Source: a virus
Lineage: Duplodnaviria > Caudoviricetes
Reading direction: 5' to 3' (one strand)
IMG/VR virus record: IMGVR_UViG_3300028585_000507
Location: 1-39,241 of that record
Length of the DNA: 39,241 nt
The position numbers were made by a program, and so were the translations under genes. This document shows, piece after piece, positions 35,883-38,365 of the stretch (positions within the stretch are counted from its first letter, which is position 1; each line of letters begins with the position of its first letter). The notes beneath the pieces were generated by a model. The model was not told the origin of the DNA. It was given only the letters and a program-made list of their open reading frames with translations, and did no database searches.

Positions 35883-36026
35883 ACTGCGCAGTCGGTCGGG
35901 CCTCCTACGGTGATGCGGCAATAACGACCCGATTTGCGATTTGCATCTGTTTTGAGGTCGCACTGGTAGACGGACGCCGATGTTTCGATCATTAGGCCCT
36001 AACCGAATCTGTTGGCGGGGCCGACC

Positions 36027-36596
36027 GTGAAAATCTTGTTCTCGATCGCTTGTGCGGCATTTTCTCTGGGGGCCGGTTCTGCTCAAAGCGCTATTGTTAC
36101 GCAATCGTTCAGTCTCGCAACAACGCCCTTCACGTCGTCAAGCTTTCTACCGCAATTCCCATACACGGCGTTTACCGGTAAATTTCGCATTTCCTTTGAT
36201 AACAGTTCGTCAATAACCAAATCTAAAGCGGGATTGACGATATCCGGTTTCAATGGGGCGAGAGATTTTGACCTGAGCTACGCATACGACAAGGGCACAG
36301 ACTCTTTCACGATTGCAACTAGCCCAGAACCATACCGATGCCTCTTGTCGGACACGTCCTTTTGCTTTTTTGTTCCGAATGCGTCGACTACGTTGAAGTC
36401 GGACGGAGTAACGACCGATCGAATTTATTATAGTTTACCGGGGGCGTATGGCGTTTCCCAGAACTATGCCGCAACGAGGGCAATTTTACAGACTACGGCT
36501 GTTCCGGAGCCGTCAATGTGGATGCTGTTTCTCGGCGGCTTCAGTCTTCTAGGCGCGTCGATGAGGCGACGCCCCCTGGCCCCGCGGCGCGCCTGA
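36027..36596 (+). CDS. PEP-CTERM (PEPxxW-type) exosortase-sorted surface protein
   Basis: Signal peptide ending AQSA; C-terminal VPEPSMWMLFLGGFSLLGASMRRR; AT-richer than the phage core. Confidence 0.9.
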   Translation: MKILFSIACAAFSLGAGSAQSAIVTQSFSLATTPFTSSSFLPQFPYTAFTGKFRISFDNSSSITKSKAGLTISGFNGARDFDLSYAYDKGTDSFTIATSPEPYRCLLSDTSFCFFVPNASTTLKSDGVTTDRIYYSLPGAYGVSQNYAATRAILQTTAVPEPSMWMLFLGGFSLLGASMRRRPLAPRRA

Positions 36597-37105: not shown

Positions 37106-37284
37106 CTTTTCCTCGCTCTACGGACTGAGGCTAATCGAACACGTCGCCGGCAGCGAGGCCGGCGGGGTGCCATGTTCGTGCATGGCAACCGGCGGGAGGC
37201 TCCCCCGCCACGCGCGGCCGACCAGCCGCTTGCGCCCGCACCCGGCAGCGCCGGGCGGCTGCTATAGAGAGCACAATTTCCAAC

Positions 37285-38025
37285 ATGTATTCCAGAATCG
37301 ATTTCAGCGCGCCGCCGACCGGCGTGGCTGGCGAGGCCGCCGGCTACCTCTTCGATCAGGCAAGCGACCTTTTCGGCAATCGGGAATGCCTCGGCTTCGG
37401 TAGCCCTGCGTTCGCGGTGGTGCTGCTTGATCGTGAGCAGGCGAACGCGATCGTCATGGCAAACCACTATAGTCGCCGCATTACGAGCGGATCGACCTTG
37501 CATCTGGGCCTTTGGCTCGACGGCGTGCTGTGCGGTGTCCTGCAATATGGCAACGCGATGAACCCGGCGTCTGCGCCCACTATCGTCGCCGGCACCCTCA
37601 TGTCCGAATATCTCGAACTGAACCGTATGTGGCTGTCCGACGACGCGCCCCGGAACAGCGAAAGCAAGGCGCTCGCCTACTCGATCCGGCTGATCCGCCG
37701 CGTTCGCCCGGCGGTGAAGTGGATACAATCGTTCGCCGACGAACGATGCGGACTGTTCGGGACGGTCTATCAGGCTGCCGGCTTCACCTTTCACGGCGAG
37801 CATATCGGGCTGTTCTGGGAACTGGACGGGGACTGGTATCACAATAGCCTCATGACGCGCCGCAAGGATGCATCTGGGCCGCGTGCAGCCCGGTTGCTGG
37901 CGAACCGGGAACGCGCCGTCCTTCACCGCCTTCGCCAGTTTAGATATCTGCGTTTCCTACAGGTCCGGTTCGAGCGGGCCTGTCTCTACCCGCGACAGCC
38001 CTTCCCGAAGCCCGACTATCAGTAA
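37285..38025 (+). CDS. mom: Mom-family DNA adenine hypermodification enzyme (Mu Mom homologue)
   Basis: NHYSRR, LHLG, GVLQYG.A.NP, YLELNRMWLSDDAPRNSESKALAY, WIQSFADERCG..GTVYQA, ELDGDWYH, LANRERAV.H...Q.RY.RFL, QPFPK match Mu Mom motifs as recalled. Confidence 0.92.
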   Translation: MYSRIDFSAPPTGVAGEAAGYLFDQASDLFGNRECLGFGSPAFAVVLLDREQANAIVMANHYSRRITSGSTLHLGLWLDGVLCGVLQYGNAMNPASAPTIVAGTLMSEYLELNRMWLSDDAPRNSESKALAYSIRLIRRVRPAVKWIQSFADERCGLFGTVYQAAGFTFHGEHIGLFWELDGDWYHNSLMTRRKDASGPRAARLLANRERAVLHRLRQFRYLRFLQVRFERACLYPRQPFPKPDYQ

Positions 38026-38068
38026 GGCGCTGGTTGCCTTGTAGGATTGTTCAGACGAACTGGGGAGC

Positions 38069-38138
38069 GCGGCCCGTCCAGTGGACGAGCCCCCGTCCAG
38101 GGGGTGCGAGGACGGCGCGACCCCGTCGGGCCGCTCCA
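38069..38138 (+). ncRNA. Atypical tRNA-Gly(UCC)-like RNA, putatively non-proteinogenic
   Basis: Acceptor stem GCGGCCC/GGGCCGC plus discriminator T and CCA; anticodon arm GCCCC-CGTCCAG-GGGGT (TCC at 38096-38098); T-arm GACGG-CGCGACC-CCGTC; mini D-arm GTCC-AGT-GGAC. Confidence 0.8.
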
Positions 38139-38143
38139 TGCGA

Positions 38144-38365
38144 TCAGTAGCTGATCCAGTCGCTTTCTGCGTCGTCGACCGCCTCGAACATATCCCCTTC
38201 GGCCATGGTTTCGCGGAGACGCTTCCGGACGTCTTCAGGTGTGCCGCCGCGCGGAAACTGCCGATCGCTCTTCGCGGCCTTTACCAGATCGCCGACCCAA
38301 CCTTCCCGATCGGTTTGCGCCAGTAGCCAAGCGCCGAAGGTTTCACCCTTGTCGTTCGTCATCAT
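38144..38365 (-). CDS. YozE SAM-like small protein, putatively SOS-inducible
   Basis: TFGAWLLAQTDREGWVGDLVKAAKSDRQFP...AESDW pattern; GAGG RBS; LexA box upstream. Confidence 0.75.
   Translation of the reverse strand: MMTNDKGETFGAWLLAQTDREGWVGDLVKAAKSDRQFPRGGTPEDVRKRLRETMAEGDMFEAVDDAESDWISY

Follow-up and report, generated by a model that had tools for sequence, protein, structure and literature searches.

A tRNA-Gly-Like RNA Beside a Phage mom Gene as a Candidate Non-Translating Glycine Donor for DNA Modification

Introduction

The Mom protein of phage Mu moves glycine from Gly-tRNA-Gly onto N6 of adenine in double-stranded DNA, and a subsequent rearrangement yields 6-NcmdA (PMC13219725). 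All three E. coli tRNA-Gly isoacceptors work in this reaction and Gly-tRNA-Ala does not, and it is the authors' conjecture that Mom recognizes chiefly the acceptor end of the tRNA (PMC13219725). The initial annotation of the DNA analysed here had pointed to reported work on Gly-tRNA-Gly as the Mom donor, and this is that paper. The Mom of the present locus belongs to the same protein family as Mu Mom, retains its active-site residues and is predicted to use the same donor chemistry. However, Mu relies on host tRNAs and encodes nothing of this kind near mom, whereas in the present phage the gene is accompanied by a tRNA-like RNA that the phage itself encodes.

Three other systems resemble parts of this arrangement. 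Staphylococcal tRNA-Gly NP1-3 have a six-pair anticodon stem, a five-base loop and TGC/TGT T-loops (PMC7826273), which agrees with the annotation's remark on non-proteinogenic tRNA-Gly species with altered T-loops. These tRNAs serve GNAT Fem transferases, and the phage RNA shares with them the six-pair anticodon stem, G55 and a weak 51-63 pair. Nonetheless, NP1-3 are chromosomal, have a full-size D arm and a peptidoglycan acceptor, and their function has been demonstrated (PMC7826273), whereas the phage RNAs are 68-73 nt long, lack the 8/9 linker, carry any base at position 34 and have a proposed role. The position of the RNA recalls selC within selB of Alphaproteobacteria, i.e., a tRNA gene nested in frame at the 3' end of its partner, for which separated and reversed forms also occur in relatives, as they do for mom and its RNA (PMC8124441). 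However, tRNA-Sec translates, SelB is an elongation factor, and the RNA of the locus studied here is not nested. Finally, allo-tRNAs and irregular tRNA polycistrons are likewise odd cloverleafs from phages and metagenomes, some of them charged but non-translating; they differ in their 8/4 and 9/3 architectures and do not have glycine identity (PMC5389517, from which the word 'Mom' is absent).

No phage-encoded tRNA beside mom is mentioned in the main text or two supplementary files of PMC13219725 or in the main text of the preprint, and the accessible parts of the wider literature, including PMC5389517, PMC7609411 and few subscription papers, describe no mom-linked tRNA-like RNA. It appears that tRNA-dependent Mom and non-proteogenic tRNA-Gly are each known, whereas their coupling and the RNA family are new.

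The Phage Record and Its mom Gene

The window, i.e., the whole stretch of DNA analysed (39,241 nt), is the record of a 39-kb temperate phage with an integrase at its left end and mom near its right end; the genes follow the order integrase, repressor, primase, terminase, portal, capsid, tape measure, endolysin and mom. The host is probably a sphingomonad, since the named close relatives of its Mom come from Sphingomonas and Sphingobium.

37285..38025, plus strand: mom, 246 aa, TAA stop; Mu-like GNAT DNA adenine modifier

The mom product matches Pfam Mom (PF25680; E 2.2e-61, 207.5 bits against a curated cut-off of 27.1), is assigned to PHROG 1384 and is 48% identical to Mu Mom across 212 aa. 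The Mu Mom activity residues R111, S124, D149 and R151 correspond to R114, S127, D152 and R154, and H58, Y59, Y159 and W181 correspond to H61, Y62, Y162 and W184; the dimer residue W48 is replaced by E51. The protein looks intact and is predicted to form 6-NcmdA on double-stranded DNA. If the Mu target context holds, the 4,978 SAS sites counted in the window are relevant. Between the lysis genes and mom lies a gene for a PEP-CTERM protein (36012-36596, plus strand). A 73-aa ORF on the minus strand (38144-38365), which is also found in close relatives, ends 5 nt from the CCA of the RNA described below and has a weak YozE SAM-like match that falls below the cut-off.

A 70-nt Cloverleaf Downstream of mom

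The RNA and its parts are located as follows:

38069..38138, plus strand: tRNA-Gly-like RNA, type I; 70 nt; 85.4 bits with covariance model R1 (the RNA is an R1 training sequence)
38069..38075, plus strand: 5' strand of the acceptor stem (G1, C2, G3, G4), pairing with 38128-38134
38076..38088, plus strand: shrunken D arm; 3-bp stem 38076-78/38084-86, 5-nt loop, GA linker to the anticodon arm
38089..38105, plus strand: anticodon arm; 5-bp stem extended by a 32-38 pair; positions 38097-38098 are C35/C36
38111..38127, plus strand: T arm; G49-C65, A50-U64, C51-G63; loop CGCGACC
38135..38138, plus strand: discriminator U73 (38135) and encoded CCA (38136-38138)

The initial annotation had described a 70-nt cloverleaf 43 nt past the mom TAA, and most of its description stands: the coordinates hold, the acceptor stem forms 7/7 pairs, the D region between acceptor stem and anticodon arm counts 13 nt, the T-loop of the window copy reads CGCGACC in place of TTC, and U73 and the encoded CCA are present. 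The C32-G38 pair that it considered possible is borne out by the family, in which a 32-38 pair forms in 45/51 sequences and leaves 4-5 loop bases. Two points have to be amended. The supposed substitution of G for U8 is rejected: a 3-bp GUC/GAC stem with a 5-nt loop directly abuts the acceptor stem, so the 8/9 linker is rather lost, and the D arm of type I RNAs may be read as a canonical D stem minus this linker. As for the UCC anticodon, the loop CGTCCAG does contain C35/C36, but UCC is not specific, position 34 being free in the family.

The window RNA lacks the canonical tRNA marks U8, GG D-loop, U33 and TTC T-loop and, as had been anticipated, standard finders miss it (0 ARAGORN calls; no match of the Rfam tRNA model at the site). 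When the geometry of the site itself was used for a fixed-geometry scan, 21/21 pairs formed there, compared with 18 at the runner-up among ~78,000 window positions; because the geometry was derived from the same site, conservation is the real test of the cloverleaf. Single-sequence folding is unremarkable (z = -1.47), and the cloverleaf lies 3.3 kcal/mol above the predicted MFE, with the inner arms at ~37% probability. Since such folding of a lone sequence is unconvincing, the case for the RNA rests on its relatives. The letters from 37200 to 38137 are identical in contigs of two sequencing runs (one possibly the source), and contigs of other phages match exactly from 38069 to 38138 and diverge outside. 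No RNA run is listed among the sequencing runs that carry the sequence, which has no bearing on expression.

The RNA Family and Its Linkage to mom

Absence of a similar cloverleaf beside other mom genes had been named as an argument against a Mom-related role; instead, a family of such cloverleafs adjoins many mom genes. The family comprises 83 distinct sequences of 68-73 nt. From the RNA side it was searched with a pattern that fixed only the acceptor stem, two D-stem bases and TCCA. The pattern had 52 matches in IMG/VR, namely 49 family members, two array tRNA-Gly genes called by ARAGORN (L119 and L128, dropped) and one chance match without a cloverleaf (L106, also dropped). A mom gene lies within 2.5 kb of 48/49 of these members, and the sole member without one (L139) sits on a 5.5-kb fragment. 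In GTDB (42/64 parts searched), the pattern gave 120 matches; the T stem is complete in 21 of these, every one of which is located no more than ~500 nt from mom. The other 99 were left out as members and used as a control, and 0/99 of these chance matches lie near mom (67 with flanks of <=1,500 nt and 32 with <=300 nt).

The linkage can also be approached from the protein side. Viral Mom homologs carry the RNA at 22/80 loci. Among the 20 closest, at 60-73% identity, 17 have it, and the loci of the other three offer only 0, 0 and 274 nt downstream; among the more distant homologs the RNA occurs in only 5/60. For metagenome Mom loci, the window's own contig excluded, the count is 38/79, i.e., 24/24 of the closest homologs and only 14/55 of the others. 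A Pfam Mom match was found in 19/401 sphingomonad-family genomes (20 loci); the RNA is present at all four high-scoring loci, one of which is the seed genome, and at 0/16 low-scoring Mom-like loci. The low-scoring proteins without the RNA (L390-L405; open frames of 275-530 aa) may be another enzyme subfamily. A covariance-model search of 151 sphingomonad-family genomes gave three strong matches, all adjoining mom, and a weak one, to a canonical tRNA-Gly. Cultured phages and plasmids yielded no useful BLAST match to the RNA, whereas the covariance model did find the copy in phage Pan3 (see below). Type I RNAs span three Mom lineages that are ~20-25% identical. Because the loci are related by descent, locus counts do not equal independent events. 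A 19-kb record without mom holds a 5'-truncated copy (L097:1414-1471, minus strand), which looks like decay after loss of the partner.

Covariation and Fold

The annotation had proposed a check for stem covariation, and compensatory changes are found in the anticodon and T stems. The alignment (A2) contains 51 sequences, 6/57 having been removed for length (L116, L118, L119, L126, L128 and L259). In total, 97.9% of its cells pair, and 183 cells are changed on both sides compared with 55.5 in shuffles; slid controls collapse, and RNAalifold recovers the identical four stems. These figures should be read with the selection in mind: the search pattern had already dictated six acceptor pairs and some of the D stem, and the filter had dictated the T stem. 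The anticodon arm, which was set by neither, has 92.8% of its cells paired, and 6/6 of its pairs show two-sided changes. The D stem, with two pattern-fixed bases, is paired in 51/51 sequences and shows a two-sided change in one. In the set found through mom (51 distinct sequences), the three counted T-stem pairs are formed in 51/51, each in more than one combination of bases. In the acceptor stem, two-sided changes occur at pairs 4, 5 and 7 and are absent from 1-72 and 3-70. The two-sided stem changes over 51 sequences, together with the conserved end-to-end boundaries, demonstrate selection on the RNA.

Position Relative to mom

When Mom proteins with the RNA are grouped at 90% identity, the RNA starts in frame within the mom 3' end in 42 of the 69 clusters, usually immediately behind the final P-(Y/F)-P-K-P motif. 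It is separate in 23 clusters (by 1-959 nt), lies in the 5' end in three and is convergent in one; two further convergent loci were seen outside this tally. Unlike the 42 nested cases, the window RNA lies outside the mom frame (43-nt gap). An RNA family is hidden within annotated mom ORFs, and it accounts for their odd C-terminal tails.

38034..38068, plus strand: possible RNA promoter; TTG ~35 nt before G1; putative, weak in the window copy

Upstream of free-standing copies, T occupies -35 in 29/39 distinct sequences and TTG recurs there; relatives often have TTGCAG ... CAGCAG, with a CAG-rich stretch near -10. A sigma-70 promoter and terminator scan of the window site found none, and we infer from the recurrence among relatives that the TTG/CAG region may be the promoter of free-standing copies. 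The region before these copies is CAG-rich, CAG being a Mom target context, and it is conceivable that modification feeds back on the RNA promoter. At one locus (L013, ~2760-2860), tRNA pieces occur in an odd order, T-arm-like before D-arm-like, between mom and the RNA.

Charging Determinants Are Kept and Translation Features Are Lost

The GlyRS identity elements listed by the annotation (U73, the first acceptor pairs and C35/C36) are all present in the window and match the published set, in which C35, C36 and U73 are among the synthetase determinants (PMC9976931, PMC10464925). They are nearly invariant among the 83 distinct sequences: G1-C72 in 83, C2-G71 in 82, G3-C70 in 83, C35/C36 in 83 and U73 in 83 (51/51 in the mom-found set). 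The encoded CCA is present in 81/83 (49/51 in the mom-found set). Purine-4/pyrimidine-69, which is favoured by a heterotetrameric GlyRS (PMC9976931/PMC10464925), is found in 82/83 sequences, the window included. The reduced D arm is a possible complication. The L. plantarum GlyRS, which depends on the L shape, hardly aminoacylates a tRNA devoid of its D arm, although the same work refers to a minihelix that the E. coli enzyme charges (PMC9976931/PMC10464925); given the poor charging by the L. plantarum enzyme, the shrunken D arm could hinder charging.

Features associated with translation show a different picture. Position 34 is free (U 47, A 17, C 14, G 5), U33 is present in only 36/83 sequences and a TTC T-loop in only 11/83, the GG D-loop is absent from type I RNAs, G55 occurs in 71/83, and the G51-C63 pair is found in only 5/83. 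On an EF-Tu energy table built for canonical tRNAs (PMC3239215), the summed term is +0.1 kcal/mol for the window and +0.46 on average for the family (range -0.4 to +1.1), whereas six sphingomonad tRNA-Gly sequences of host type sum to between -0.6 and -0.9 kcal/mol; the pairs of the staphylococcal non-proteogenic tRNA-Gly (from PMC7826273) sum to +0.6 kcal/mol. Type I RNA is therefore predicted by this canonical-tRNA model to bind EF-Tu more weakly than host tRNA-Gly does. Two structural features of non-proteogenic tRNA-Gly, a six-pair anticodon stem with a reduced loop and a TTC-less T-loop, are present.

A Likely Glycine Donor for Mom

We consider it likely, with a probability of about 0.7, that the 70-nt RNA is a chargeable, non-translating glycine donor for Mom, and the computational checks that had been proposed for such a glycine shuttle all came out in its favour. 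The RNA would be transcribed with mom or next to it, and its ends trimmed to the encoded CCA. Host glycyl-tRNA synthetase is predicted to load it with glycine. The charged RNA, predicted to be a poor partner for EF-Tu and the ribosome, would then pass its glycine on to Mom, which would use it to modify adenines in the DNA of the phage. The benefit would be that glycine is supplied without competition from EF-Tu during the modification of thousands of adenines in every genome copy, and the modified DNA would presumably be protected from restriction. Since Mu Mom takes glycine from each of the three host isoacceptors, and Mu and a large Mom clade (45 clusters) do without the RNA, it is an accessory to Mom and not a requirement, and its exclusive use by Mom, as put forward by the annotation, is conjectural.

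If this reading is correct, a virus supplies a purpose-built non-translating tRNA as the co-substrate for a chemical disguise of its DNA, and two known ideas, tRNA-dependent Mom and non-proteogenic tRNA-Gly, are joined in one module. The family would then be a natural series of RNAs that separates the parts of a tRNA needed for charging from those needed only for translation. It also bears on points left open by the Mom paper, namely what Mom reads on the tRNA and how Gly-tRNA passes EF-Tu.

Alternative Explanations

In two other readings glycine plays no part. The RNA might be an uncharged decoy or brake that limits DNA modification, or the drain on tRNA, in a lysogen. Such a role would account equally for the linkage to mom; free-standing and convergent copies must own a promoter and could differ from mom in timing, and the shrunken D arm may impair charging. 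However, there is no obvious reason for a pure Mom decoy to keep the anticodon determinants of the synthetase, and yet C35/C36 are invariant (83/83), while Mom accepts all anticodons and is suggested to read mainly the 3' acceptor end (PMC13219725). The conserved anticodon cytosines thus favour charging over a pure decoy, which we regard as unlikely. A slightly smaller chance still is given to a main role in cis regulation, in which excision of the tRNA-like fold leaves a non-stop mom mRNA and so limits Mom. It would fit the 42/69 clusters with the RNA nested in the mom 3' end, all 42 of them in frame, and has a precedent proposed for selB-selC (PMC8124441). Processing in cis would not need glycine identity, however, and the RNA is equally conserved where it lies outside the ORF or on the opposite strand, as in the window, 22 other clusters and the convergent loci. 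This conservation favours action in trans, and a cis effect may be a side effect in nested loci.

The RNA could also be a working or formerly working tRNA. It is improbable, to about the same degree as the decoy, that it is a functional spare tRNA-Gly that resists nucleases and serves translation, or a decoy against a tRNA-targeting host defence, kept near mom only because Mom drains the host Gly-tRNA pool. tRNA-Gly genes are common in phages, those in the arrays of L119 and L128 share the acceptor stem and have no mom in the fragment, and near-canonical copies exist in a fourth Mom lineage (L472, Pickles13). However, the anticodon loop of type I RNAs has 4-5 nt after the 32-38 pair, U33 is kept in 36/83 and A34 occurs in 17/83, there is no GG D-loop, and the EF-Tu pairs are weak; type I RNAs are therefore unlikely to decode. 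Derivation from a host tRNA-Gly, as a decayed att-site duplicate or a pseudogene, was raised by the annotation as a competing identity and is hardly credible. It is true that the RNA lies near one prophage end with the integrase at the other and that a 5'-truncated copy without mom exists (L097), but no 12-mer of the RNA recurs elsewhere within the window, and in five sphingomonads the main tRNA-Gly genes differ from the RNA in their acceptor stems and have loops of the normal kind. This explanation is rejected in view of the covariation and the conserved boundaries.

Other RNA Types, the Mom Tree and Cultured Phages

A scan of divergent Mom proteins yielded 80 loci, 60 of which carry a tRNA-Gly-like RNA at the mom end. 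Two of these RNAs are type I, and the others are 74-78-nt forms or D-less forms of ~67-72 nt. The 74-78-nt type has a T-stem mismatch and bulge, and in a distant Mom lineage many loci (within L416-L488) have a deformed tRNA-Gly of one of these types nested behind the PYPK motif. The model used for these forms (R2) was trained on 22 of the 60 loci and also scores canonical tRNAs (29-38 bits), so the claim for the divergent types is carried by position and sequence. Of 50 distinct RNAs tallied, 49 start with GCG, all 50 carry U73, and CC occurs in the loop, as placed automatically, of 45; 15/15 tested proteins from these loci are Pfam Mom. At three loci (L443, L451 and L473), two mom-like genes lie in tandem, and only the second of them has the RNA at its end.

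A FastTree tree of 179 clusters, which is unrooted, has long branches and reflects sampling biased by the searches used, places type I in three deep lineages, while other types fill 50/57 clusters of a fourth, the lineage of the near-canonical copies (L472 and Pickles13). A clade of 45 Mom clusters has no such RNA in any of them. The tree omits 15/194 clusters, including Mu and JD024, that lack the RNA and have <500 nt of downstream sequence. Ancestral pairing of mom with the RNA and later loss is plausible, and only that, because of the missing root, the long branches and the biased sampling. We would go further only tentatively, and with the odds somewhat against it: Mom might ancestrally have been an enzyme with a private aminoacyl-carrier RNA cut from its own mRNA, whittled in each lineage (near-canonical, short-D, D-less) to the minimum that GlyRS charges and EF-Tu ignores, with the cognate Mom preferring this RNA over host tRNA and with Mu having lost it.

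Near the mom genes of Mu, PAN70, JD024 and pAEv1818 there is no R1 or R2 match, and five of nine further cultured phages have no tRNA-Gly-like RNA at mom. Cultured carriers of the mom-RNA pair do exist: Pan3 has a nested type I RNA, and in Martha and Wyborn a tRNA-Gly-like RNA spans the mom stop. Cultured sphingomonad lysogens with the pair are S. rubra CGMCC 1.9113 (L200), where the RNA is nested, Sphingobium chungbukense DJ77 (L161), where it is separate, and S. aquatilis DSM 15581 (L255), where it is convergent. The copy in Pseudanabaena phage Pan3 (L499:1619-1687, plus strand; 78.5 bits) is unannotated and sits inside a 'hypothetical protein' similar to divergent Mom proteins, which offers a cultured test system. 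Microbacterium phage Pickles13 has an annotated tRNA-Gly(CCC) (L502:1651-1725, minus strand) that is convergent with a Mom-like acetyltransferase gene and lies 32 nt past its stop. ARAGORN also calls tRNA-Gly(TCC) with GCGGC-type acceptor stems at L119:2501-2573, L128:2501-2573 and L359:1501-1574; two of these lie in phage tRNA arrays with no mom in the fragment, and all three are candidate sources of type I.
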